Part shown: piece after piece, positions 3,070-36,473 of the stretch
How positions within the stretch are numbered: the stretch's first letter is position 1
Layout of the letters: every line of letters starts with the position of its first letter
IMG/VR virus record: IMGVR_UViG_3300045988_146535
Reading direction: 5' to 3' (one strand)
Origin: a virus
Lineage: Duplodnaviria; Heunggongvirae; Uroviricota; Caudoviricetes
DNA length: 36,473 bases
Program-made: the position numbers and the translations under genes
The notes under the pieces: model-generated
The model's input: only the letters and a program-made list of their open reading frames with translations
The model's database searches: none
Told to the model about the DNA's origin: nothing

Positions 3070-4118
3070 GAAATCGTCCCCAGTACCGCCAGTTCATTTT
3101 TTGCAATGGAGATATTGTCTGCCGGTGCAAGCAACTGATGGCTGTATTCCCCGTTCGCACCGGAAATCGCCTCACTGATACGCGATACCTTCAGTTCTCC
3201 CTGCGGATAACCATCACGCAGCAGGAACGAACGCAACTCCGCGGTGATGGCAGCCCGTATTTCCGGTGTGTCCGGCGTCACGCGGATATGAAAATCCACC
3301 GTATGTGCCACCGGCCTGAACACATACAAATCAGAGCCTGCCACCGGGGCCAGTGGCCCGATATGTTGTCTTGCCGCCGTTTCCGTTGATTCTTCCGGAA
3401 TGGGATTAATCAGGTCACTGCTGGCAATCATCACACCGACAGTTCCCGTTCCCATCCAGTGACGGTATGTCCATGCGCGGGTAATGCCGGGCACTTCTTT
3501 AGCCCAGACGACATAGTCCCCGTCAGCCCCGCCCTGCGGCGTCCAGTAATACCGCTCAATGACGCGGGCGCGCCACGTTTCCAGCTCTTCAGTATCAAAT
3601 CCGCCTGTCAGGGTGTCAGCCACACCGGAAGACGGCAGACCATTCACCGGCGTGACCAGGATTAATGCCGTACCGTCGTCAGCGTTACCGACCGCGCCTG
3701 CACTTGAGCAGGCGATCGGCACGCGCAGGACACCACCGGAGCTGGTTGCATCGGCAGTTGCCGTGTACTGAACCAGGTCATCGCGCTGAATAACACTCCC
3801 GGCGGTCACCTTCAGGCCATCGCTGACACCTTCCCAGCGCATATACCCGCTGGCAGCCGTGGCCCCCTTGCGCGGACACCGTTTCATCGCAGCATGTCGC
3901 GCCAGCCAGGACTCATCGCACAGGTCAGGCAGCATGTTCATTGCCAGATAATCGATGTACCCGTAAACCGTATGCAGCGCCGCCGCATACACCTTTGCCC
4001 GCACGTCTTCATCCATGCGCCGGAGCGTGTCGCTGACGTCCAGCCTGGCGAATAAATCGTTACGGAGCATACTGATATTTTCTGCCAGCGTCGGGCGCTG
4101 AAATTCACTGTCCGCCAT
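3060..4118 (-). CDS. Baseplate J-like protein (Mu gp47-like)
   Basis: 352 aa; position and size in the Mu-type baseplate module. Confidence 0.65.
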
Positions 4119-4533
4119 GCGTTATCGCACTCCACAGATCATCAAAAGAAATCATTACCGGTCCGTCACGACGCCAGAGGGTGATACTGTTACCCAGTTC
4201 ATTAATCCCGGTGCGGCGGATATCCAGATCAATACGGGACACCACGCCGTCATCAATCATCCATTGCAGGCATTCGCGGATATACCCCCTTACCGTCAGC
4301 ACCAGCTGATTGGTCAGTTTGCTGCGCTGAAGCAGCCACAGTCGGGAGCCGTAACGGTCATTCTGTACCGCAGGCCAGGTATCCCCCCACCATCCCATCG
4401 GGACGTCGGCGTTGTCATCAGGCTCCGCCCGCCGCCAGGTAAACAGGGAAATCACCACGGCGCGGGTCAGCGGATCCAGCGGTGCGCTGGCGCAGGTGCG
4501 TTTACCGTTCACCGTCAGCCACAGTTCCATCAT
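4105..4533 (-). CDS. Baseplate protein (Mu gp46-like)
   Basis: 142 aa between the gp45-like and J-like genes. Confidence 0.6.
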   Translation of the reverse strand: MMELWLTVNGKRTCASAPLDPLTRAVVISLFTWRRAEPDDNADVPMGWWGDTWPAVQNDRYGSRLWLLQRSKLTNQLVLTVRGYIRECLQWMIDDGVVSRIDLDIRRTGINELGNSITLWRRDGPVMISFDDLWSAITHGGQ

Positions 4534-23240: not shown

Positions 23241-24350
23241 ATGAAGAAAATCGAAAAACTGTTCACTGAAGTAATACGGAAGTTGCGCCATAAGAAATTT
23301 ATGCGCTCGATAGCTAGTAAAAGAAGCACAACAGAAAGAAAGCTAAAACGTAATGGAAGTTTAAAAAAAATCGCTCCAGAGAAAATACTTGCTCCAACCA
23401 TACTTGATATTTACAAGGCGGAATATCATGAGAATGTGGTTAATTTTATAGAAAAAATAGAAAACAAAGCAAAGACAGGAAATAAAAAGATATATATATG
23501 TTTTAGAAATACAATTCATATATCGGCTGCTGCTGGCTTATTTCTTCTTGCAAAACTAGAGACGTTAAAAAGCAATCATAGGGACTTAAAATATATCGTA
23601 GCCAAACCGCCAATCAAAACTTCATCAAAAGGAGAACAGCACGTTGTTGATTCTGTTTTGAACAGAATCGGAATCTATGCAGCATTAGGTGTTAAATCAA
23701 GAGAAATGAGAGAAACTCCGTCTGTAAAATGTTGGGAGGTAATTCGTGGCGAACTAGTAGATTCGGAAATTGCAGGAAACTTATTAGAAACAATCACAGA
23801 AAAAATGGGTACCGATTATACAGATTTATATCGTCCCTTGATAGAAGCCATGTCTAATTCAGTAGAACATGCATATCGAGACGATTTATATGACTCAAAT
23901 AAAAATAACAATAAAAATAAATGGTGGTGCTTTGCTGCAATTATGAACAACAAGTCAATTATGAACAACAAGTTAATATTACTAATTTGTGACCTCGGTG
24001 TAGGTATACCTAAAACGTTAAAACTTACTCAAGGTGAAAAGGTTCTTGCAAAGCTAACCGAGTTCCTTGGTAAGCCATTAGTCCTTGATTCAGAACATAT
24101 AAAAGCCTCATTGCAGGTTAAACGAACCCGAACAAAGCTTGGATACAGAGGGAAAGGAGGAACTGATTTACAATCTATCATAGAAAACTTTGAAAATGCA
24201 CAATTACGAATTATATCCAACAAAGGAAATTACAGATATACTCATCGTAAGAAAGCAAGACCAGAGTTAATGTGGGATGCCAAACATTCCATCAACGGTA
24301 CTATAGTTGAATGGAGCGTACCGCTACCAAATGAAGGAGACTCTCAATGA
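23241..24350 (+). CDS. GHKL/HATPase_c-type ATPase (RsbW-like serine-kinase fold) with an uncharacterised N-terminal region
   Basis: 369 aa; N-box-like EAMSNSVEHAY, G1-like ICDLGVGIP (DxGxG) and G2-like GYRGKGGTDL; visibly AT-rich; opposite strand to the flanking late genes. Confidence 0.6.
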   Translation: MKKIEKLFTEVIRKLRHKKFMRSIASKRSTTERKLKRNGSLKKIAPEKILAPTILDIYKAEYHENVVNFIEKIENKAKTGNKKIYICFRNTIHISAAAGLFLLAKLETLKSNHRDLKYIVAKPPIKTSSKGEQHVVDSVLNRIGIYAALGVKSREMRETPSVKCWEVIRGELVDSEIAGNLLETITEKMGTDYTDLYRPLIEAMSNSVEHAYRDDLYDSNKNNNKNKWWCFAAIMNNKSIMNNKLILLICDLGVGIPKTLKLTQGEKVLAKLTEFLGKPLVLDSEHIKASLQVKRTRTKLGYRGKGGTDLQSIIENFENAQLRIISNKGNYRYTHRKKARPELMWDAKHSINGTIVEWSVPLPNEGDSQ

Positions 24351-24664
24351 AAACCTTATTTATCAAGGACTTTTCAAGATTCCCGGGGCCTAGATACGAA
24401 AGGTTAGGTGAAAACAGTGGCGAAAAATTCCGCGATTTATTTTTGATACCAGCACTTAACGAAAATCCAGACTTAGTCATTGACTTTGATGGTGTTTTTG
24501 GCTATGGCTCATCTTTCCTTGAGGAGGCCTTTGGAGGTTTGGTGCGTAAAGGGATAGAGCGCGAAAAATTGGAGAAGCTTAAGAAGAATCTCAAAAGTAA
24601 AGATCAATACATTATTGAGGAAGTAATTTCATATATTGATGATGCTCTGCGAGATCTAAAATAA
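24347..24664 (+). CDS. STAS-like small protein (DUF4325-like, anti-sigma-antagonist fold)
   Basis: 105 aa; VIDFDGVFGYGSSFLEEAFGGL matches the DUF4325 core pattern as I recall it; start overlaps the stop of the upstream gene. Confidence 0.5.
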   Translation: MKTLFIKDFSRFPGPRYERLGENSGEKFRDLFLIPALNENPDLVIDFDGVFGYGSSFLEEAFGGLVRKGIEREKLEKLKKNLKSKDQYIIEEVISYIDDALRDLK

Positions 24665-25125
24665 TGGACACTGACGTTACTCAGAATTTATGGACAATGC
24701 CTGCAACGATTATAGCGATTGTTGGCATTTTTTTAACAATATTAGGCTGGATAGTTACAGCAATACTTACTCGCATTAACAATGCGAAGAATTTAAAAAA
24801 ACTAGAAATAAATAGACTTATTGATGAGTTATTTTATAAATTAGATTTTATTTATAGCGAAATGCTTGAATTGCTGCGAGACGATAAAAAAGACAAACAA
24901 GTCCTATATTACATTTTTACATCATCAGTAAGGCATGTTGAGTTTATTTGCGAGCGAATTGAACTATTAGACAACAAAAAAAACAAAGACAATGGATTAA
25001 TATCTGAATTAAGACAAGCATGTACTAACGATGCGAAATATGAAAAAGAAAAAATTGGAACAACATTACATGAAATCCAAAGCGCTAATGAAAAACTCAA
25101 AAACAAATATCTGAAATCATTTTAA
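24664..25125 (+). CDS. Membrane protein (one N-terminal transmembrane helix, charged coiled-coil-like C-terminal region)
   Basis: 153 aa; transmembrane segment ATIIAIVGIFLTILGWIVTAILT; ATGG overlap with the upstream stop. Confidence 0.55.
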   Translation: MDTDVTQNLWTMPATIIAIVGIFLTILGWIVTAILTRINNAKNLKKLEINRLIDELFYKLDFIYSEMLELLRDDKKDKQVLYYIFTSSVRHVEFICERIELLDNKKNKDNGLISELRQACTNDAKYEKEKIGTTLHEIQSANEKLKNKYLKSF

Positions 25126-27725: not shown

Positions 27726-28081
27726 ACTTTCACCCCCCTCTCATGTAACCAGTGGGCTGCACGCAGCCTGGCGTTTTCCTCACCGGCAAGCAGTGAGCGG
27801 ATAATCCCGACCGCCTCGCTGTCGTCATCCTTCACCGCGGTATGAAGCGTGATGCCCCGGGCCACGCCACGCTTTATCGTGATGACGCCTTTTTTCTCCA
27901 GTGCGCGAAGATGCTCCACCGCTGCATTCACTGAACGGTATCCCAGCATGGTAGCCACCTCCTGATTGCTTGGCGGGAAGCCACGTTCTTTCTGGTAAGA
28001 AATCAGCATATCCAGCACCTGCTGCTGGCATTGAGTTAACGTCGTCATTAAGCCCCCACGTAATTCCCTGACAGATACCAC
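27722..28081 (-). CDS. LexA-N-like winged-helix DNA-binding protein (no peptidase domain)
   Basis: 119 aa; LTQCQQQVLDMLISYQKERGFPPSNQEVATMLGYRSVNAAVEHLRALEKKGVI resembles the LexA DNA-binding domain. Confidence 0.5.
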   Translation of the reverse strand: MVSVRELRGGLMTTLTQCQQQVLDMLISYQKERGFPPSNQEVATMLGYRSVNAAVEHLRALEKKGVITIKRGVARGITLHTAVKDDDSEAVGIIRSLLAGEENARLRAAHWLHERGVKV

Positions 28082-28536
28082 TCTTCACCCGATGCAGCGC
28101 GCTTGCTGCTTTTCCGTAAGCACCGCTCACGACGCGCCAGAAAATTGTTTCGTTCTGGCTGGGAGTGGCTTTCACGGAATGCCTCCATCCACACCGTTGC
28201 AGCTCGACGGAATAAGCCCCTGGACTCCAGTTCTTCAGCCTGGCGGGTCAGGCACAAAATCGCCCGGGGGTCGTTAGTGCCGACATAGAAATTGCGCACA
28301 GGTCTGGTTTCACAAACTGGTTCCGGCTCCTGCGATATCTCAGCCTGGCGCGGGAAATGTCTGCGTGTATCCTCTTCACAACGGTGAGCCACACGCCCAC
28401 TCTGACGTAACTTGCTTGCTGACTGCAGAACTCGCTGCCGTGAGTAACCTGCAAAAGCATCCGCAATGTCTCCGGAAGTACACCCCGGATGGGCTTCAAT
28501 GAATTTCTGAACGTCATTCAAAAGACTCATGCTCAC
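28048..28536 (-). CDS. Hypothetical protein in the replication module
   Basis: 162 aa, basic C-terminus; ORF only. Confidence 0.35.
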   Translation of the reverse strand: MSMSLLNDVQKFIEAHPGCTSGDIADAFAGYSRQRVLQSASKLRQSGRVAHRCEEDTRRHFPRQAEISQEPEPVCETRPVRNFYVGTNDPRAILCLTRQAEELESRGLFRRAATVWMEAFRESHSQPERNNFLARRERCLRKSSKRAASGEEWYLSGNYVGA

Positions 28537-29474
28537 CCCCTGAATCCTGCCGGGATCTGGCTGTAGTCCACATTGTCGTAACTGGCTTTGAAGTACGGGT
28601 CTTCGCGTTTTTCTGTGTGCGTGCTGACGGACGGCGATAAGCGCAGGGAAAGCTCATCCCATTTTTCCCGCAACTTCGACGGGCTGAGCACGTTACGGCA
28701 CCAGAACGGATCGCGGCTGACGCGGCTGTACATCTCGCAGATTTGTTTGTGAGTACGACCATCCTGCACACACATCAGGCGAATTTCGTTTGCCCAGGCT
28801 GTCCAGTTCGGTTCTTTGGGACGAACCACCTCGCCGTCACATTCGGCAGCCTGCTCGTACAGGGCGATGATTTTTTTCCAGAGCCACTGTGCGCAGATCA
28901 AATCATCCGGCGTTCCCCACTGGCGCTTTTTAGGGCTGAATACAACCGCATCAGGATGGCGAGTTAAAAAATCCTGTTCATCCGTCTGCGTGTCCGGTTG
29001 CGAAGCGTCCGGACGAGAAGGTTTTTTATCTGACGGATCATGTTTTGATTTTACTGACGGATCCCCGCCAGATTCTGACGGGTGAAAACCCGATTTTTTG
29101 CCAGATTTCGACGCATCAAATTTTGACGGGTCAGATTTTGATGCGTCAGATTTTGACGGGTCAGAATCTGACAGTTGAGAAAATGCCGCTGCCTGAAGCT
29201 TCGCAACGTTAAGCTGATAAACATTCGACGCATTGCGGTTACCCTGGCGACGCGCCTTACGCGTTAACCAGCCTTCTGCTTCCAGCCGTGCGATAGCCGT
29301 TCTGACGGTACTCATCCCCGCGCCAATCTGGCGGGCAATAGTTTCAATTGATGGCCAGCACACACCTTCGTCATTACTGAAATCAGCCAGGCGGGCCATA
29401 ATTGCCACACTGGATAATTTCATGCCTGACGCTGCGCAACCATCCCATACATAGCCGGTTAATTTAGTGCTCAT
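28533..29474 (-). CDS. Replication initiation protein (N-terminal wHTH, DnaT-like C-terminal domain) containing internal iterons
   Basis: 313 aa; low-complexity SDSDPSKSDASKSDPSKFDASKS linker encoded by tandem DNA repeats; position after cro/cII-like genes. Confidence 0.6.
   Translation of the reverse strand: MSTKLTGYVWDGCAASGMKLSSVAIMARLADFSNDEGVCWPSIETIARQIGAGMSTVRTAIARLEAEGWLTRKARRQGNRNASNVYQLNVAKLQAAAFSQLSDSDPSKSDASKSDPSKFDASKSGKKSGFHPSESGGDPSVKSKHDPSDKKPSRPDASQPDTQTDEQDFLTRHPDAVVFSPKKRQWGTPDDLICAQWLWKKIIALYEQAAECDGEVVRPKEPNWTAWANEIRLMCVQDGRTHKQICEMYSRVSRDPFWCRNVLSPSKLREKWDELSLRLSPSVSTHTEKREDPYFKASYDNVDYSQIPAGFRG
29047..29175. repeat. Iteron-like tandem repeats (candidate replication origin inside the initiator gene)
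   Basis: About 6-7 copies of a GATTTTGACGG-like unit at roughly 15-bp spacing, e.g. agattttgacgggtc, agattttgatgcgtc, agattttgacgggtc. Confidence 0.5.
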
Positions 29475-29483
29475 GACCGACCT

Positions 29484-29822
29484 CTATTTCCCTGAATTTA
29501 CGACGAAACTGTTCGAGCGGGCTGAAGCACTCATGCTCATAGCCTTCTCGGAGATAGATAACCCGTTGTGTTTCCGGCTCCCAACGAATGACTCTGACGG
29601 GCACTCCGTAGTGATCTTTGAACCAGCGGTTAACTTCTCGCAAAGGACTGTCTCCTTCTGCCGGTTGAAATCACCCACAGCCCACTCAGCAAAGCTGTGG
29701 GTTACAATTTCCCTGTCACCTGGTACATTCACTGCATAGCAATACTCCACCCTCGCTTTTCCACCCGGTACAGGAAGCGCAATCAGTTGCGAGCGACGGT
29801 AGTGTGTTGTTAAACTGTTCAT
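29484..29822 (-). CDS. Hypothetical early protein (cII-position), translationally coupled
   Basis: 112 aa; ATGA start/stop overlap with the upstream YdaT-like gene. Confidence 0.35.
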
Positions 29823-30382
29823 GCGTTAGTTTCTCCACAGTCACGACACGCCACGGCGCCCGGAGCTGCACACTCGCGGGCGTCATTACTTTCTGAAATG
29901 CAAAAGATTTTGTAGACCAGTGCTGCATGCTCCTGCAGCTTCGAAATTGAGAGATACAGCTCGTCGTTAATTGCTGTCTTCTCATGCGGTTCCACTACAC
30001 CGTCTTCGATTGCTGAACGAATCTGTCTGGAATAACTGCCAATCTGTTCAATGACTTCCAGCAGGCGCTGGTTGATATCAGCGTTGTCCACATCCTCGAC
30101 GTCAGGAAGAGACACAAAGACGCCATTTGCAGACTGCGCCACAGCATCAGCAATGAAGTGAGTGCCACCAGCACGCTGTAAAACCATTGCCCATCCCAGC
30201 GGGAAAATCTGATCGCCATCTGCACGAAGGCGGTTGAATAAAGCGTTTTCTGTTACATCGAGCCAGTCAGCCGCTTCAGCGTAACCCCCCGGCAACGCCG
30301 CGATAGTTTTTCTGACAGCTTTCACGTACCACTCAGGCTGTTTTTCTATTTTCCAGTGATGCTTACCCACGATTAGCCTCAT
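29819..30382 (-). CDS. YdaT-like early regulatory protein
   Basis: 187 aa immediately downstream of the Cro-like gene; weak resemblance to the YdaT family from memory. Confidence 0.4.
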
Positions 30383-30413
30383 CGTTCTGTGGTTAAAAAT
30401 TGAAAGTGTTCTG

Positions 30414-30614
30414 CTAATCTTTCGGATAGATATCCGGTCTTAAGTCAGATTTCGTAATTGCACCTGACGTGCATTGCTCAAGTTTTTTAGCCAGCACAAA
30501 ACTGGCTTTTTTATAGCCATTGAAAACCAGCCGTAAGTAGCCAGGTGTTGAGCCAACTTTTCCGGCCAACTCGCCCTGCTGTTCTTTGGTTAAAGAGTCC
30601 CAATACGCTTTCAT
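30414..30614 (-). CDS. Cro-like (YdaS-type) HTH repressor
   Basis: 66 aa MKAYWDSLTKEQQGELAGKVGSTPGYLRLVFNGYKKASFVLAKKLEQCTSGAITKSDLRPDIYPKD; GGAGG ribosome-binding site 10 nt upstream; divergent from cI. Confidence 0.7.
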   Translation of the reverse strand: MKAYWDSLTKEQQGELAGKVGSTPGYLRLVFNGYKKASFVLAKKLEQCTSGAITKSDLRPDIYPKD

Positions 30615-30704
30615 ACAATATGTACCTCCGGTATACATATTACATGATTGAAATGAACCTTCAAGATACTTGTACCTTAACGGTACAAGGGTTTTAATTT
30701 TGTT
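30615..30704. promoter_or_regulatory. Immunity-region operator/promoter (divergent pR / pRM-like)
   Basis: Perfect palindrome CTTGTACC-ttaac-GGTACAAG (30669-30689) and imperfect ATGTACC-tcc-GGTATACAT (30620-30638); candidate -10 TTTAAT at 30693-30698 gives a near-leaderless cI. Confidence 0.5.
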
Positions 30705-31379
30705 ATGAAAACAATCCATGACATCCGGCGGTCTAACGCCAGAAAACTGAGAGATGGTGTTGGCGGGAATTCTTCCTTTGCCACTATGATTGATCGCGAG
30801 CCAACCCAGACCAGCAGGTTTATGGGAGATGGTGCTACTAAAAATATCGGTGACAGCATGGCACGACACATCGAAAAATGTTTCGACCTGCCTGTCGGAT
30901 GGCTCGATCAAGAACACCAGACAACGAACATCACAAAAAAACCTGATGTTTCAATCACTAATAAACAAATCACATTAGTCCCTGTCATATCATGGGTACA
31001 GGCCGGAGCATGGAAAGAAGTTGGATATTCTGAGGTTGATTTGAGCACAGCAGAAACGTATCCCTGCCCTGTCCCCTGTGGGGAAATGACTTATATCTTG
31101 CGGGTGATAGGTGATTCAATGATTGATGAGTACCGCCCGGGAGACATGATTTTTGTCGATCCTGAAGTACCTGCCTGCCACGGTGACGACGTTATTGCAT
31201 TGATGCACGATACAGGTGAAACCACCTTCAAAAGGTTGATAGAAGATGGGACACAGCGTTATCTCAAAGCGTTAAACCCAAACTGGCCTGAGCCTTACAT
31301 TAAGATCAACGGTAATTGCTCTATAATTGGTACAGTGATTTTCTCAGGAAAACCAAGAAGATACAAAATCAAAGCCTAA
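30705..31379 (+). CDS. cI-like repressor (HTH plus LexA/S24-type autocleavage domain)
   Basis: 224 aa; C-terminal VIGDSM...GD...V and K-containing S24 peptidase-like region. Confidence 0.8.
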   Translation: MKTIHDIRRSNARKLRDGVGGNSSFATMIDREPTQTSRFMGDGATKNIGDSMARHIEKCFDLPVGWLDQEHQTTNITKKPDVSITNKQITLVPVISWVQAGAWKEVGYSEVDLSTAETYPCPVPCGEMTYILRVIGDSMIDEYRPGDMIFVDPEVPACHGDDVIALMHDTGETTFKRLIEDGTQRYLKALNPNWPEPYIKINGNCSIIGTVIFSGKPRRYKIKA

Positions 31380-31390
31380 TCAATGTTTAT

Positions 31391-31415
31391 GAACCTGCTT
31401 CGGCAGGTTTTTTTA
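31391..31415 (+). terminator. Intrinsic terminator after cI
   Basis: AACCTGC-ttcg-GCAGGTT followed by TTTTTTT. Confidence 0.6.
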
Positions 31416-31418
31416 TAC

Positions 31419-31452
31419 TTGACAATGTACCTTTGAGATACATAATGTACCC
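31419..31452 (+). promoter_or_regulatory. pL-like early-left promoter with flanking operator repeats
   Basis: TTGACA (31419-31424), 16-bp spacer, CATAAT (31441-31446); 8-bp direct repeat AATGTACC at 31424-31431 and 31444-31451 shares the TGTACC half-site of the cI/cro operators. Confidence 0.5.
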
Positions 31453-31572
31453 AAGAGAAACAACAAACAGGCAGGTCGTCCACGAAGTAGCCCCCTGGAG
31501 CATATGAAGTCCAGGATGATTCGTTGAGTCATGTTGTGCCACTAGGCACTCATGTTAAAGCAGGTGTATGAA

Positions 31573-31848
31573 ATGAAAGTCCAGATTTTAAACAATAACT
31601 GTGAAGTCGTTTGGTCATACGACATAGCCGCCCCTGTAGATCAGAGCGGCGATAGCTGGACCAATGGGAAACATCAGATTATGGCTGGAGTTGTGTTCTC
31701 TTTACGCCGTGCTTTGGAACAGGCTGAAGTATTTCCATCAGACCCTGAATGGAAATGGCCTTTTTCTATTTGTCCAAATTCGGAGAGCACATTTCAGAAA
31801 ATTGGTCAGAAAGTCGCACTCGAAGAGCATCAGCCAACTGTTTCCTGA
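31573..31848 (+). CDS. Hypothetical protein, first gene of the early-left transcript
   Basis: 91 aa from the internal ATG with an AGGTG ribosome-binding site (ORF 31552-31848). Confidence 0.4.
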   Translation: MKVQILNNNCEVVWSYDIAAPVDQSGDSWTNGKHQIMAGVVFSLRRALEQAEVFPSDPEWKWPFSICPNSESTFQKIGQKVALEEHQPTVS

Positions 31849-32011
31849 TTTTTTCAGGTAACTCGTCGGCATCGCAGAAACAACAACGCTCGATCATGTT
31901 GAAAGCCGATTCGTAGAACTGTTTCTGCTGAGTGTCGCTGAGACAGGAAAAGAGCGACGTTACGATGATTTTATTAATTGCATTATCAAGTTCTTTTTCA
32001 TCAAAAGTCAT
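31766..32011 (-). CDS. Hypothetical protein (antisense to the early-left transcript)
   Basis: 81 aa; AGGAAA ribosome-binding site 6 nt upstream of the ATG; Cys pairs (CCFC); overlaps the 3' end of the plus-strand ORF. Confidence 0.35.
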   Translation of the reverse strand: MTFDEKELDNAINKIIVTSLFSCLSDTQQKQFYESAFNMIERCCFCDADELPEKIRKQLADALRVRLSDQFSEMCSPNLDK

Positions 32012-32265
32012 TTGATTTTCCTTTTATGTATACGGGCTTAAAAGGATACCACCGAGCCTGAAGTGGTGAAAAGACAGGCACATAACAGCTAAGTATTTTC
32101 AACCAAAGAGAATCCTTAGCGTTGTGGTGAATGCGGCTCAGCGCACGCGGGTTAAGGTTGAGGCTGACAGTCGACCTTCTGTGGATACCCACCCGCCTGG
32201 TGTGCAACCTTCGCCAGGCACCGGGAGGCACCCGGCACCACAACTTTATGCTGTGTGTAGTCCTG

Positions 32266-32310
32266 GCGGTACCAGCTTGTACCCTTGCTTCCGGCTGGTA
32301 CCGTCCTTTT
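32266..32310 (+). terminator. Candidate intrinsic terminator inside the structured early-left leader
   Basis: CGGTACCAGC (32266-32275) pairs with GCTGGTACCG (32293-32302), followed by tccTTTTT. Confidence 0.35.
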
Positions 32311-32448
32311 TACAAAACAGAGAAGAGCATCACCGGACGACGGGCTCATAACCCAATCCATCCGGGCGGCTGCCACCGCAGGTGTTCTTCTCTGTTTTGT
32401 GGAGAAACTAATCGGCCTTGCAGGGTCGATATGATGAGGAGCAGCAAA

Positions 32449-32811
32449 ATGGCTAGCGAACGCAGTACTGATGTGCAGGCATTTATCGGGGAGCTGGACG
32501 GCGGCGTATTTGAAACCAAAATCGGCGCAGTTCTCAGTGAAGTCGCTTCCGGTGTGATGAACACGAAAACCAAAGGTAAGGTCTCACTCAACCTGGAAAT
32601 CGAACCATTTGATGAGAACCGTGTGAAAATCAAACACAAACTCTCATATGTTCGCCCGACTAACCGCGGGAAAATTTCCGAAGAAGACACCACCGAAACG
32701 CCGATGTATGTCAATCGCGGTGGTCGCCTGACTATTCTGCAGGAAGACCAGGGACAGTTACTGACTCTTGCCGGTGAACCTGACGGAAAACTCCGCGCAG
32801 CAGGTCGTTAA
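32449..32811 (+). CDS. YfdP-like protein
   Basis: 120 aa from MASERS; the upstream part of ORF 32131-32811 looks non-coding; size and order match the K-12 CPS-53 yfdPQRST cluster as I recall it. Confidence 0.5.
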   Translation: MASERSTDVQAFIGELDGGVFETKIGAVLSEVASGVMNTKTKGKVSLNLEIEPFDENRVKIKHKLSYVRPTNRGKISEEDTTETPMYVNRGGRLTILQEDQGQLLTLAGEPDGKLRAAGR

Positions 32812-32876
32812 TATCGTTTTTAATTAACTGATTATTTATCTCATCACTGAATATCTTTATATAGTGAGGACTTATT

Positions 32877-33701
32877 ATGTCTCAGAACTTAGACGCAACC
32901 GCAATTAATCAAATCCATGCCCTTATTTCTGCTCAGGGTGTTAATGAAATTATCAGTAAGATTGGTGCCGATGCTGTGGCATTGCCTGAGAATTTCCGCA
33001 TTCATGATCTGGAAAAATTTAATTTAAATCGCTTCCGTTTCCGTGGTGCGCTTTCCACTGCCAGCATCGATGACTTTACCCGTTATTCTAAAGATCTTGC
33101 AGATGAAGGCACCCGCTGCTTTATCGATGCTGATAATATGCGTGCCGTCAGTGTGCTTAACCTGGGTACTATTGATGAACCAGGTCACGCAGATAACACC
33201 GCCACACTCAAACTGAAAAAGACAGCACCGTTCTCTGCTCTGTTGTCTGTTAACGGCGAGCGTAACTCCCAGAAGTCACTGGCAGAATGGATTGAAGACT
33301 GGGCCGACTATCTTGTGGGCTTTGATGCTAATGGTGACGCTATTCAGGCAACAAAAGCGGCTGCGGCTGTCCGTAAAATCACGATTGAAGCAAACCAGAC
33401 CGCTGATTTTGAAGATAATGACTTCAGCGGCAAACGCTCCCTGATGGAGTCTGTCGAAGCGAAGACCAAAGACATTATGCCAGTGGCATTTGAATTTAAA
33501 TGCGTTCCGTTTGAAGGTCTGAAAGAACGTCCGTTTAAATTACGCCTCAGTATTATCACTGGCGATCGTCCTGTACTGGTTCTGCGCATTATTCAGCTGG
33601 AGGCGGTGCAGGAAGAAATGGCTAACGAATTTCGTGATCTGCTTGTTGAGAAATTCAAGGACAGCAAAGTAGAAACCTTTATTGGTACTTTCACCGCCTG
33701 A
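32877..33701 (+). CDS. YfdQ-like protein
   Basis: 274 aa; size and position in the yfdPQRST-like cluster. Confidence 0.55.
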
Positions 33702-33828
33702 TTTCATTACTGCATATGCCCCTGCGGGGGCATTTATGGAAACGTAATTTACTCAATAATCGCCGGATGGTGAGGGATTCTTTTTACCAGAATTCAGCGC
33801 GGTGCAGCGCATATACGTGGAGAACAAA

Positions 33829-34365
33829 ATGTCATTTATTAAAACTTTTTCCGGGAAGCATTTTTATTATGACAGGATAAATAAAGACGACATCGATATT
33901 AACGATATCGCGGTTTCCCTTTCAAATATCTGTCGCTTTGCCGGTCATCTTTCGCACTTCTACAGCGTCGCCCAACATGCGGTTCTTTGCAGCCAGCTGG
34001 TGCCGCAGGAATTTGCTTTTGAAGCGTTAATGCATGATGCAACAGAAGCGTATTGCCAGGACATTCCCGCACCACTGAAACGCCTTCTTCCTGACTATAA
34101 ACAAATGGAAGAAAAAATAGACGCCGTAATCCGTGAGAAATACGGGTTACCCCCAGTTATGAGTACGCCCGTGAAATATGCCGATCTCATCATGCTGGCA
34201 ACCGAACGCCGCGATCTCGGGCTTGATGATGGCTCTTTCTGGCCTGTACTGGAAGGTATCCCGGCAACAGAGATGTTCAACGTGATTCCACTGGCACCGG
34301 GCCATGCCTACGGGATGTTTATGGAACGCTTTAACGAGTTATCGGAGTTACGCAAATGCGCATGA
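33829..34365 (+). CDS. YfdR-like HD-domain phosphohydrolase
   Basis: 178 aa from the ATG with a GGAGA ribosome-binding site; HD-like H...HD motif region (AQHAVLCSQL...LMHDATEAY). Confidence 0.6.
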   Translation: MSFIKTFSGKHFYYDRINKDDIDINDIAVSLSNICRFAGHLSHFYSVAQHAVLCSQLVPQEFAFEALMHDATEAYCQDIPAPLKRLLPDYKQMEEKIDAVIREKYGLPPVMSTPVKYADLIMLATERRDLGLDDGSFWPVLEGIPATEMFNVIPLAPGHAYGMFMERFNELSELRKCA

Positions 34366-34718
34366 ATGTTTTCGAAATGGAAGGGTTTCTTCGTGGGAGA
34401 TGTGTACCGCGAGATCTGAAAGTAAATGAAACAGATGCTGAATACCTGGTGCGTAAATTCGATGCGCTTGAAGCTAAATGTGCAGCACAGGAAAACAAAG
34501 TAATACCAGTGTCAACTGAACTGCCACCAGCAAATGAAAGTGTTTTGTTATTCGATGCTAACGGAGAAGGCTGGCTAATTGGCTGGCGTTCTCTCTGGTA
34601 CACCTGGGGACAAAAAGAAACCGGAGAATGGCAGTGGACATTTCAGGTCGGGGACCTTGAAAACGTCAATATCACTCACTGGGCAGTAATGCCAAAAGCA
34701 CCGGAGGCTGGAGCATAA
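34356..34718 (+). CDS. YfdS-like protein
   Basis: 120 aa; overlapping coupling with neighbours. Confidence 0.5.
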   Translation: MRMNVFEMEGFLRGRCVPRDLKVNETDAEYLVRKFDALEAKCAAQENKVIPVSTELPPANESVLLFDANGEGWLIGWRSLWYTWGQKETGEWQWTFQVGDLENVNITHWAVMPKAPEAGA

Positions 34719-35023
34719 TGACCACTTTTACCGACAAAGAACTGATTAAAGAAATTAAAGAGCGTATCAGCAGCCTTGACGTGCGAGACGATATTGAGCG
34801 CCGTGCTTATGAAATCGCACTCCTATCTCTGGAAGTAGAACCAGATGAACGCGAAGCTTATGAATTATTCATGGAAAAGCGTTTCGGTGACTTAGTAGAT
34901 CGTCGGAGAGCAAAAAACGGCGATAACGAATACATGGCATGGGATATGACTCTCGGTTGGATCGTCTGGCAGCAACGAGCTGGTATCCATTTTTCAACAA
35001 TGTCACAGCAAGAGGTGAAATAA
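34718..35023 (+). CDS. YfdT-like protein
   Basis: 101 aa; ATGA overlap with the upstream gene. Confidence 0.5.
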   Translation: MTTFTDKELIKEIKERISSLDVRDDIERRAYEIALLSLEVEPDEREAYELFMEKRFGDLVDRRRAKNGDNEYMAWDMTLGWIVWQQRAGIHFSTMSQQEVK

Positions 35024-35373
35024 TGGAGCCATACAGCCTCACACTCGATGAGGCCTGTCATTTTCTCAAGATATCCAGACCGACTGCCATTAACTGGATA
35101 CGCACAGGGCGTCTTCAGGCAACACGCAAAGATCCCACTAAGAATAAATCTCCTTACCTCACAACACGACAAGCCTGCATTGCGGCTCTTCAGTCTCCGC
35201 TGCATACTGTCCAGGTGAGCGCGGGTGATGGCATAACAGAGGAAAGAAAATGTCACTCTTCCGCAGAGGTGAAATATGGTACGCCAGTTTCACATTGCCG
35301 AACGGTAAAAGATTTAAACAGTCTCTTGGAACAAAGGACAAAAGGCAGGCGACAGAACTCCATGACAAGCTAA
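35023..35373 (+). CDS. xis: Excisionase (HTH), 3' end overlapping int
   Basis: Starts [31 protein letters not shown] (HTH) at an ATG overlapping the upstream stop; about 116 aa, overlapping the integrase start by ~124 nt. Confidence 0.5.
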
Positions 35374-36413
35374 AGGCTGAAGCATGGCGGGTCAGCAAAC
35401 TTGGTGAAATACCTGATATAACGTTCGAGGAAGCGTGTGTCAGGTGGCTTGAAGAGAAAGCACATAAAAAATCACTGGACGATGACAAAAGCCGGATCGG
35501 ATTCTGGCTTCAACATTTCGCAGGAATGCAACTAAGAGACATTACTGAATCAAAAATTTATTCAGCAATGCAGAAAATGACGAACCGGCGTCATGAGGAA
35601 AACTGGAAACTCAGGGCAGAAGCATGCAGAAAAAAAGGGAAACCTGTTCCAGAATACACGCCAAAACCAGCGTCCGTTGCAACGAAGGCTACGCATCTTT
35701 CATTTATAAAGGCCCTACTAAGAGCCGCAGAGCGTGAATGGAAAATGCTGGATAAGGCACCAATTATTAAAGTGCCTCAACCAAAGAATAAACGGATCCG
35801 CTGGCTGGAGCCCCATGAAGCACAAAGGCTGATTGATGAATGTCCGGAGCCATTAAAGTCTGTTGTTGAATTTGCACTGGCAACAGGCTTAAGACGCTCG
35901 AACATCATCAACCTTGAATGGCAACAAATAGATATGCAGCGCCGGGTGGCATGGATAAACCCGGAAGAGAGTAAATCAAACCGCGCAATTGGCGTTGCGC
36001 TGAATGATACTGCATGTCGCGTATTGAAAAAACAAATCGGGAATCATCACCGTTGGGTATTTGTGTACAAGGAAAGCTGTACCAAACCAGACGGAACGAA
36101 AGCGCCAACAGTAAGGAAGATGCGGTATGACGCAAACACAGCCTGGAAAGCGGCGCTGAGACGGGCTGGTATTGATGATTTCAGATTTCACGACTTGAGA
36201 CACACCTGGGCAAGTTGGCTGGTTCAAGCCGGAGTCCCGTTGTCAGTGTTACAGGAAATGGGAGGCTGGGAGTCTATCGAAATGGTTCGTCGATATGCTC
36301 ACCTTGCACCTAATCACCTTACCGAACACGCACGGCAAATAGACTCGATCCTGAACCCATCGGTCTCAAATTTGTCCCAGTCAAAAAATAAGGAAGGTAC
36401 TAATGATGTGTAA
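35250..36413 (+). CDS. int: Tyrosine integrase (phage integrase family)
   Basis: 387 aa; N-terminus [34 protein letters not shown] typical of P22/SfV-type integrases; C-terminal R...[10 protein letters not shown]...Y catalytic motifs; adjacent to the tRNA 3' end. Confidence 0.9.
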
Positions 36414-36427
36414 CTTATTGATTTTAA

Positions 36428-36473
36428 TGGTGCCGATAATAGGAGTCGAACCTACGACCTTCGCATTACGAAT
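36428..36473 (-). tRNA. thrW: tRNA-Thr 3' portion (partial, runs off the window end); probable attachment site
   Basis: Reverse complement of the last 46 nt is ATTCGTAATGCGAAGGTCGTAGGTTCGACTCCTATTATCGGCACCA, the anticodon-arm-to-CCA part of a tRNA; matches E. coli thrW from memory. Confidence 0.7.

Follow-up and report, generated by a model that had tools for sequence, protein, structure and literature searches.

Two questions are raised by a run of five genes in a 36,473-nucleotide phage DNA (the window, by which we mean the whole stretch analysed): whether they are the yfdP–yfdT cluster of Escherichia coli K-12 and, if they are, whether they act on replication of the host chromosome. The first-pass annotation had proposed both. 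In the list of open reading frames, the sizes (120/274/178/120/101 residues), order and outer coordinates of the five plus-strand genes at 32449-35023 are as that annotation gave them:

32449..32811, plus strand: yfdP, 120 aa; 98.3% identical to K-12 YfdP; phrog_204; precomputed Pfam assignment PF27127
32877..33701, plus strand: yfdQ, 274 aa, DUF2303; 99.3% identical to K-12 YfdQ; Pfam DUF2303, 309.7 bits; PDB 9o7m 'YfdQ Protein', E=1e-44
33829..34365, plus strand: yfdR, 178 aa, HD-domain protein; 97.8% identical to K-12 YfdR; phrog_318, E=3e-110; PDB 2gz4, E=3e-14
34356..34718, plus strand: yfdS, 120 aa, with a DUF551 C-terminal domain; 95.8% identical to the K-12 protein; Pfam DUF551; phrog_583
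34718..35023, plus strand: yfdT, 101 aa; 96.0% identical to K-12 YfdT; phrog_660

The length of YfdR is counted from the ATG at 33829; the mechanical reading frame opens at a GTG at 33802. The identities listed come from global alignments with the CPS-53 proteins of K-12 DH10B, in which the lengths are equal and there are no gaps. Similarity to YfdP/Q/R/S/T, whose absence had been named beforehand as fatal to the proposal, is thus 96–99% at the protein level, with the genes in the same order. At the DNA level, positions 32430-35079 align with K-12 as a single contiguous blastn segment of 2.65 kb with 96.7% identity. The pN/pS ratio between the window and K-12 copies is 0.10, from which we conclude that the five genes are under purifying selection; pS is 0.04–0.05 for yfdP and yfdQ as against 0.14–0.16 for yfdR, yfdS and yfdT. 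Each ATG is preceded by a Shine-Dalgarno-like purine tract, and matching genomes carry the RefSeq labels yfdP, YfdQ family, yfdR 5'-deoxynucleotidase and yfdT. The description of the genes as coupled holds for yfdR, yfdS, yfdT and the following xis, which overlap by 10 nt (yfdR/yfdS), 1 nt (yfdS/yfdT) and 1 nt (yfdT/xis, stop/start), and fails for yfdP–yfdQ and yfdQ–yfdR, which are separated by spacers of 65 nt and 127 nt, the latter containing a GC hairpin.

On its sequence, therefore, the block at 32449-35023 is the orthologue of yfdP-yfdQ-yfdR-yfdS-yfdT of K-12 CPS-53 (KpLE1), by homology and not by chance, and the reading frames show all five genes to be intact. These genes are already known: they have names in K-12, and phage SfV carries them too. 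The observation, though correct, is ordinary. Of 5426 complete E. coli genomes, 3885 carry some of the 3.3 kb region and 1332 have 80% or more of it.

The window is apparently a complete SfV-like prophage integrated at thrW. The following features flank the yfd block:

30705..31379, plus strand: cI-type prophage repressor (LexA/UmuD-like S24 peptidase); Pfam Peptidase_S24, E=1.5e-26; RefSeq 'LexA family protein'; collinear with SfV cI
31419-31446, plus strand: candidate pL promoter, TTGACA-16-CATAAT; 11/12 promoter match
31424-31442 and 31444-31462, plus strand: two putative operator copies overlapping pL, of a 17-19 nt repeat family
31552..31848, plus strand: small open reading frame, the first after pL and the equivalent of SfV orf33; phrog_3195, E=6e-70; collinear with SfV orf33
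32099..32314, plus strand: STnc100-like structured RNA ending in a hairpin and U-run; Rfam RF02076
32307..32405, plus strand: long hairpin with a stem of ~25 bp, just 5' of yfdP; -61.6 kcal/mol, z=-5.8
35023..35373, plus strand: xis excisionase, HTH_17; Pfam HTH_17; phrog_2907 excisionase, E=1e-50; collinear with SfV xis
35250..36413, plus strand: tyrosine integrase (SfV/P22 type); Pfam Phage_integrase, E=3e-48; collinear with SfV int
36431..36473, minus strand: 3' part of tRNA-Thr (thrW), the prophage/chromosome junction; Rfam tRNA model positions 30-71, ending at the window end

In a 100%-identical genome, int is followed by the tRNA-Thr gene and then by proA/proB. The earlier placement of the block in an 'early-left' operon agrees with this arrangement: as expected of a lambdoid pL operon, the block lies on the same strand as the repressor gene cI, 3' of a predicted operator-flanked and operator-controlled promoter and 5' of xis-int, into which it continues without a break. 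Three further members of the operator repeat family present at pL lie between cro and cI (30619-30687), and we infer promoter and operator function for 31419..31462 from these sequence matches. Inactivation of the LexA-like cI would then release transcription from pL, so that the yfd block, xis and int would be expressed together. It counts against this reading that pL and yfdP are separated by two hairpins with U-runs; read-through from pL into yfdP is assumed. Family searches with the open reading frames between cI and yfdP, that at 31552..31848 included, returned no Pfam or NCBIfam family and no recognisable N-type antiterminator; the equivalent interval of phages ST64B and LLS carries no annotated gene.

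Immediately before yfdP is a conserved, structured leader of ~350 nt. Its STnc100-like RNA scores 41.4 bits against RF02076 (gathering 47; E about 1e-7) in a full-length model match that includes the conserved blocks, and the multi-stem fold is kept, with compensatory changes, in ST64B, LLS and sal3. The long hairpin that follows is likewise conserved with compensatory pairs, and none of 200 shuffled sequences folds as well. Positions 32264-32448 accompany yfdP in Stx2c and other phages. Among 13 yfdP loci of distant species, however, there were no gathering-level matches to the STnc100-like RNA, and in phiES15 this RNA lies 5' of kil and gam instead of yfdP. These two results rule it out as part of the yfd module; it is an element that certain early-left operons carry in their leaders. 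A second STnc100-like match, in the yfdQ-yfdR spacer, scored 20 bits (E=0.32) and was taken as chance.

The five genes differ in how closely they keep together. yfdP lies directly 5' of yfdQ in all 63 species loci and all 80 IMG/VR loci, and this adjacency persists to about 40% identity, in genera that include Pseudomonas, Salinicola, Limnohabitans, Hydrogenophaga and Alcanivorax. yfdR follows yfdQ in 47 of the species loci and is present in 77 of the IMG/VR loci, while yfdS (5/63 species loci) and yfdT (4/63) are rare. Identities of YfdP and YfdQ co-vary across loci with r=0.86, as against r=0.42 for YfdQ and YfdR. In the species-locus scan a mixed alignment query succeeded; a query derived from 9O7M had found no close relative. 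The evolutionary unit is yfdP-yfdQ, always together, with yfdR usually next and yfdS and yfdT as exchangeable add-ons.

YfdQ matches DUF2303 (PF10065) over its full length, residues 7-272, far above the cut-off of 26.6 bits. The family comprises 1788 clusters at 50% identity in a search of 1.84 billion representatives; among the 150 matches listed, those of full length run to about 265-300 aa and show neither fusions nor additional domains. A homologue is present as 36 chains in PDB entry 9O7M, for which we found no literature, and the publications found for DUF2303 mention it only incidentally. The AlphaFold2 model of YfdQ (pLDDT 74) gave no Foldseek match in the PDB at E<1e-3 and matched only other DUF2303 or unnamed proteins in BFVD. 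For YfdP, modelled as a single long helix with a meander of three strands (pLDDT 70), Foldseek gave no significant PDB match and a PDB sequence search was also empty. YfdS exceeds the DUF551 (PF04448) cut-off marginally (22.2 against 22.0 bits, residues 50-117), and YfdT has no Pfam family match. Neither of the two has a solved-structure relative and, redundant as they are in the K-12 assay described below, they share no significant similarity (E=0.34).

The work on YfdR, DnaA and the inhibition of replication to which the first-pass annotation referred is real and is that of Noguchi & Katayama 2016 (PMC4776307). The target of K-12 YfdR is domain I of DnaA; the interaction depends on Phe46 and is specific with purified protein, and YfdR competes moderately with DiaA and DnaB (PMC4776307). 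Extra copies of yfdQRST inhibit initiation at oriC in vivo and in vitro; the active multicopy set is yfdQ and yfdR with yfdS or yfdT, YfdR alone being insufficient, and for this effect yfdP is dispensable and yfdQ required (PMC4776307). Strains deleted for yfdQRST had neither an initiation nor a hydroxyurea phenotype; the replication effect appeared only when the genes were multicopy or overexpressed, and the authors concede a possible artefact (PMC4776307).

The YfdR of the window differs from that of K-12 at 4 of 178 residues. By analogy with its 98%-identical counterpart, it would bind domain I of DnaA on the Phe46 face to which DiaA and DnaB also bind and, acting with YfdQ plus YfdS or YfdT, would lower initiation at the host oriC, as in the K-12 experiments. 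We regard as the best explanation, with a probability of about 0.55, that the window carries a K-12-type yfd block in its native SfV-like early-left operon, where it damps host oriC initiation. The purpose would be to restrain initiation on the host chromosome as part of the phage early programme.

Alternatively, YfdR may be mainly an enzyme, a 5'-deoxynucleotidase altering dNMP/deoxynucleoside pools in phage development, its binding to DnaA being incidental to overexpression. The first-pass annotation had placed an HD-domain phosphohydrolase in the cluster, and this is sustained: H50, H69-D70, E73 and D119 are intact, and the same alignment columns are conserved in Atu1052 (labelled a hypothetical protein in its PDB entry, 2gz4), so that a motif and a match to an HD protein of the PDB together predict the domain. 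The phrog_318 annotation, 'deoxyribonucleoside 5' monophosphate phosphatase', the RefSeq product name and the purifying selection on yfdR point the same way. YfdR nevertheless falls below the YfbR-like cut-offs of Pfam PF12917 (25.2 against 25.9 bits) and of the NCBIfam equivalog NF003009 (20.5 against 122), the latter being the only, and sub-threshold, NCBIfam match of the yfd proteins; we conclude that YfdR, though a relative of YfbR, is not its equivalog. [quoted passage not shown] On balance, a mainly enzymatic role seems unlikely to us.

The linkage of yfdP and yfdQ suggests a different functional unit, in which this pair, with yfdR as a frequent partner, would serve host takeover or anti-defence, possibly through a large YfdQ assembly, and the DnaA phenotype would be a side effect. 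The invariant adjacency, the co-varying divergence, the size of the YfdQ family, the 36 chains of the PDB entry and the want of a fold match for either protein speak for this proposal. It is opposed by the yfdQ requirement in the DnaA-related phenotype, which is genuine (PMC4776307), by the finding of Casjens and colleagues of no link to recombination modules, and by PADLOC, whose defence models match none of the five yfd proteins; we think it rather improbable. A fuller version, which we consider doubtful but worth stating tentatively, would take as the fixed unit the structured leader RNA with an obligate yfdP-yfdQ pair, two proteins of no recognisable fold acting together, possibly in a large YfdQ-based assembly, in early host takeover or anti-defence; YfdR would be one of several interchangeable partners and the DnaA effect a by-product. 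Finally, the genes might be kept for the benefit of the lysogen, as stress-tolerance functions, and not for the lytic programme of the phage. K-12 deletions of yfdQ and yfdS are reported to be sensitive to H2O2 or MMS (cited in PMC4776307; PMC10834534), and the cryptic K-12 copy, without cI, pL and most of the phage, still shows the low pN/pS given above. Expression in K-12, however, depends on a deletion that fuses replication-gene iterons to yfdP, a peculiarity of that strain, and in the intact prophage repressor control of the promoter and the terminator-like structures ahead of the block should leave it mostly unexpressed during lysogeny. This makes lysogen benefit a most improbable explanation.

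The damping of host oriC initiation by the yfd block thus remains our preferred reading, with the caveat that yfdP, the closest evolutionary companion of yfdQ, is dispensable in the published assay, which may therefore miss the main job of the module; the yfdP-yfdQ linkage and the conserved leader RNA both suggest as much. What the window offers is the 'cryptic' genes of K-12 in an apparently intact, repressor-controlled operon, which is useful as context and of little weight as discovery. Here, induction of a real prophage, and not overexpression from a plasmid, could put the proposed shut-down of host replication initiation to the test.

Comparison with known systems places the block as follows. 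K-12 CPS-53 has the same five genes, with the same lengths, order and strand, but has suffered a 3.2 kb deletion in the immunity region, equivalent to window positions 29242-32429. Lost with it are the 5' end of the O-like replication gene, the cII-like gene, cro, cI, pL, orf33 and the leader RNA, so that K-12 yfdP adjoins the truncated replication gene yfdO; downstream, K-12 has torI where the window has SfV-type xis-int at thrW. Shigella phage SfV is collinear with the window through cro, cI, orf33, the five genes orf32-orf28, xis and int, and SfII and SfIV are grouped with it. DNA identity to SfV is about 96% across the right arm and 99.4% in the leader, but SfV covers only 47% of the 24.5 kb queried (12000-36473), which Escherichia phage vB_EcoM-720R4 matches best overall (70% coverage). 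Salmonella phage ST64B (sb37-sb35) and Escherichia phage LLS (gp39-gp37) have a repressor, a non-coding leader of 600-800 nt, yfdP, yfdQ and yfdR, in a comparison that extends as far as inside yfdR. The RNA architecture of their leaders is that of the window, whereas DNA identity in the leader is only ~77% for ST64B and is confined in LLS to one 62-nt stretch. The YfbR-type 5'-deoxynucleotidases share the HD motif region, which aligns to YfdR residues 41-104, and differ in their much higher reported nucleotide affinity (PMC4776307). Among proteins acting on DnaA, for which no sequence relationship to YfdR is expected, DiaA and DnaB use the same Phe46 surface as YfdR, and SirA of B. subtilis uses the equivalent Phe49; lambda P is likewise a DnaA inhibitor, but its target is DnaA domain III (PMC4776307). 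In each of these cases the resemblance to YfdR is a functional analogy only.

The five genes of interest lie consecutively on the forward strand, each with a RefSeq-consistent start and a Shine–Dalgarno-like tract:

32449–32811 (+), yfdP, 120 aa
32877–33701 (+), yfdQ, 274 aa
33829–34365 (+), yfdR, 178 aa
34356–34718 (+), yfdS, 120 aa
34718–35023 (+), yfdT, 101 aa

When window 32100–35400 was compared with complete Escherichia coli genomes by megablast, strain FDAARGOS_1267 gave a 100% match, and K-12 DH10B covered 32430–35076 at 96.8%; the matched DH10B DNA is annotated as yfdP, YfdQ family, yfdR 5'-deoxynucleotidase, phage protein and yfdT. In pairwise alignments, YfdP, YfdQ, YfdR, YfdS and YfdT are equal in length to their K-12 counterparts and 98.3, 99.3, 97.8, 95.8 and 96.0% identical to them, and the substitutions between the two copies give a pN/pS of 0.10. 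The identity of the genes as yfdP–yfdT is essentially certain. The ORF list and megablast match bear out the first-pass annotation, which had likened both the gene order and the sizes of 120, 274, 178, 120 and 101 aa to those of K-12, as do protein identities of 95.8–99.3%. Its description of the genes as coupled holds for the distal part, where yfdR/yfdS overlap by 10 nt and yfdS/yfdT and yfdT/xis by 1 nt each, but not for yfdP–yfdQ and yfdQ–yfdR, whose spacers are 65 and 127 nt long, the latter containing a GC-rich hairpin.

The window is a prophage, collinear along its right arm with Shigella phage SfV through the lysis genes, Q, the replication genes, cro, cI, orf33, orf32–orf28, xis and int. 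The elements that place the block are as follows:

30705–31379, LexA-like S24 repressor gene, upstream of the block
31419–31446, predicted near-consensus promoter, upstream of the block
36431–36473 (−), 3' part of a tRNA (Rfam tRNA model positions 30–71), within which the window ends

This tRNA corresponds to thrW in FDAARGOS_1267, where proA and proB come next, and it marks the prophage attachment site. Two copies of a 17- to 19-nt repeat overlap the promoter, and three more lie between cro and cI. This arrangement of repressor, predicted promoter and repeats is the layout expected of OL/pL and OR, so that the early-left label given to the block on first reading is justified by sequence. Convergent ORFs at 31552–31848 (+) and 31766–32011 (−) overlap by 83 nt and belong to one PHROG family each (phrog_3195, E = 6e-70; phrog_3311, E = 1e-56); RefSeq annotates the forward-strand ORF only. 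Elsewhere, an AT-rich island at 23241–25125 (+) has a GC content of about 0.35, compared with about 0.55 for the late genes on either side. Its three ORFs, which lie on the strand opposite to their neighbours, encode 369 aa (no Pfam match), 105 aa (STAS-like DUF4325) and 153 aa (no Pfam match). The island has no significant PADLOC match and resembles an inserted moron or cargo segment.

K-12 DNA matches window 28045–29241 and then 32430–35079, so that the equivalent of 29242–32429 is missing there (at about 4001 in the K-12 locus, L001). This 3.2-kb gap in CPS-53 takes in the 5' end of an O-like replication gene, a cII-like gene, cro, cI, pL, orf33 and the leader, and by this alignment the K-12 cluster is a deletion derivative. 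TCA[GA]ATTTTG repeats at 29116–29155, inside the O-like gene, are probably origin iterons; the deletion sets them beside yfdP, where they are the 'SrsR boxes' described in the K-12 yfdO/yfdP spacer (PMC9181523). Regulation through these boxes therefore looks like a K-12 peculiarity.

The K-12 cluster was isolated by Noguchi and Katayama in 2016 as a multicopy suppressor of hda-185 over-initiation (PMC4776307). [quoted passage not shown] DnaA pulled down YfdR alone, through domains I–II and dependent on Phe46 (PMC4776307). The first-pass statement that overexpression inhibits host initiation through YfdR and DnaA is thus accurate, and the interpretation built on it is supported. In the prophage, inactivation of the repressor would allow transcription from the putative pL, expressing the block along with xis and int; YfdR would take up the domain I surface of DnaA and, with YfdQ and YfdS or YfdT, would lower host initiation, as the K-12 proteins do when overexpressed. 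We put the probability that damping of replication is the real function of these genes at about 0.55. Deletion of the genes gave no phenotype, and the authors concede that overexpression may mislead (PMC4776307). A stress benefit to the lysogen appears very improbable. That YfdR is instead a nucleotide-pool enzyme is unlikely. It carries an HD signature (H50, H69-D70, E73, D119) and matches Atu1052 (PDB 2gz4, listed as a hypothetical protein; E = 3e-14), in line with the HD-domain phosphohydrolase of the first-pass annotation. Its score falls slightly under the Pfam YfbR-like cut-off and far under that of the NCBIfam YfbR equivalog.

A function yet to be described, centred on YfdP and YfdQ, is similarly unlikely. 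These two genes form the fixed core of the block. Of 80 IMG/VR loci whose yfdQ is near-identical, all carry yfdP and 77 carry yfdR, yfdS and yfdT being variable. Across 63 loci of different species (YfdQ 41–99% identical), including Pseudomonas, Salinicola, Limnohabitans, Hydrogenophaga and Alcanivorax, yfdP lies directly upstream of yfdQ in every case; yfdR comes next in 47 of them, and yfdS and yfdT occur in 5 and 4. The divergence of YfdQ is matched much more closely by that of YfdP (r = 0.86) than by that of YfdR (r = 0.42). Relative to K-12, pS is 0.035–0.054 in yfdP/yfdQ and 0.14–0.16 in yfdR/yfdS/yfdT, a discontinuity suggestive of a recombination joint within the yfdQ–yfdR spacer. From the locus counts, divergence tracking and jump in pS, we conclude that yfdP–yfdQ is the core, yfdR a frequent partner at a recombination-prone spacer and yfdS/yfdT mosaic. 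Casjens and colleagues report that the same trio is frequent in early-left operons and that a role as recombinases is improbable (PMC12315714). Six loci carry a repeat-protein gene between yfdQ and yfdR; in several species (L085 5823–6932, L093 5848–6663, L098 5848–6375, L102 5890–6678 and L127 1855–2640), the insert encodes tandem 'TGITSLPxxLSVGGxLxL' repeats, leucine-rich-repeat-like, and a conserved C-terminal domain.

YfdQ matches DUF2303 over its full length, and its family comprises 1788 clusters at 50% identity; full-length members of about 265–300 aa show no sign of added domains among the 150 clusters listed. By sequence search, it is 38% identical (E = 1e-44) to PDB 9o7m, a 274-residue 'YfdQ Protein' with 36 chains, which suggests a large homo-oligomer; a literature search found no paper on this entry. 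AlphaFold2 models of YfdQ (pLDDT 74) and YfdP (pLDDT 70) had no significant fold match in the Foldseek copy of the PDB (entries to April 2026, without 9o7m). YfdS has a marginal DUF551 match. Neither YfdP nor YfdT matched a family in the local Pfam copy; a precomputed table assigns YfdP to the newer PF27127. A few database proteins (clusters P0011, P0073 and P0160) combine PF27127 and PF10065 (YfdQ) in one chain of 166–284 aa, and probably result from deletions or frameshifts, not from natural fusion.

The interval from pL to yfdP contains no recognisable protein family. Upstream of yfdP lies a conserved structured leader of ~350 nt at 32099–32448 (+), in three parts:

32099–32314 (+), STnc100-like RNA (41.4 bits against a gathering threshold of 47, E about 1e-7), with a hairpin and U-run at its end
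32307–32405 (+), very stable long hairpin with a ~25-bp stem (z = −5.8)
immediately before the yfdP ribosome-binding site, short hairpin

Its architecture is common to ST64B, LLS and 118970_sal3, with compensatory changes at 18 of 93 predicted pairs in five sequences only. The RefSeq 'frameshifted hypothetical protein' pseudogene at 32124–32434 (+) (4025–4335 in locus L002) is probably a mis-annotation, because it coincides with this structured RNA and matches no protein family. The STnc100-like part is independent of yfdP: phiES15 has it ahead of kil and gam, and at gathering level it is absent from 13 distant yfdPQ loci. STnc100 has been connected with PasD, a prophage sRNA, in a 2026 preprint. 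Possible roles for the leader are those of an sRNA, a processing site or an RNA antiterminator. The stretch from the repressor gene to yfdP (31380–32448) has no recognisable gene for an N-type antiterminator, and ST64B and LLS have no annotated gene in this interval (L147 1047–1861; L149 1041–1668), although it does contain terminator-like hairpins. The early-left operon may depend for its expression on an RNA element, perhaps put-like.

The block as such is already known: its genes are named, its phenotype is published and it is very common, at least 80% of the query being matched in 1332 of 5426 complete E. coli genomes and some part of it in 3885. What remains new is the orphan yfdP–yfdQ pair and the conserved leader RNA. 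SfV orf32–orf28 correspond to yfdP to yfdT, and Noguchi and Katayama, noting these homologues, proposed a role in an ancestral propagating phage (PMC4776307).
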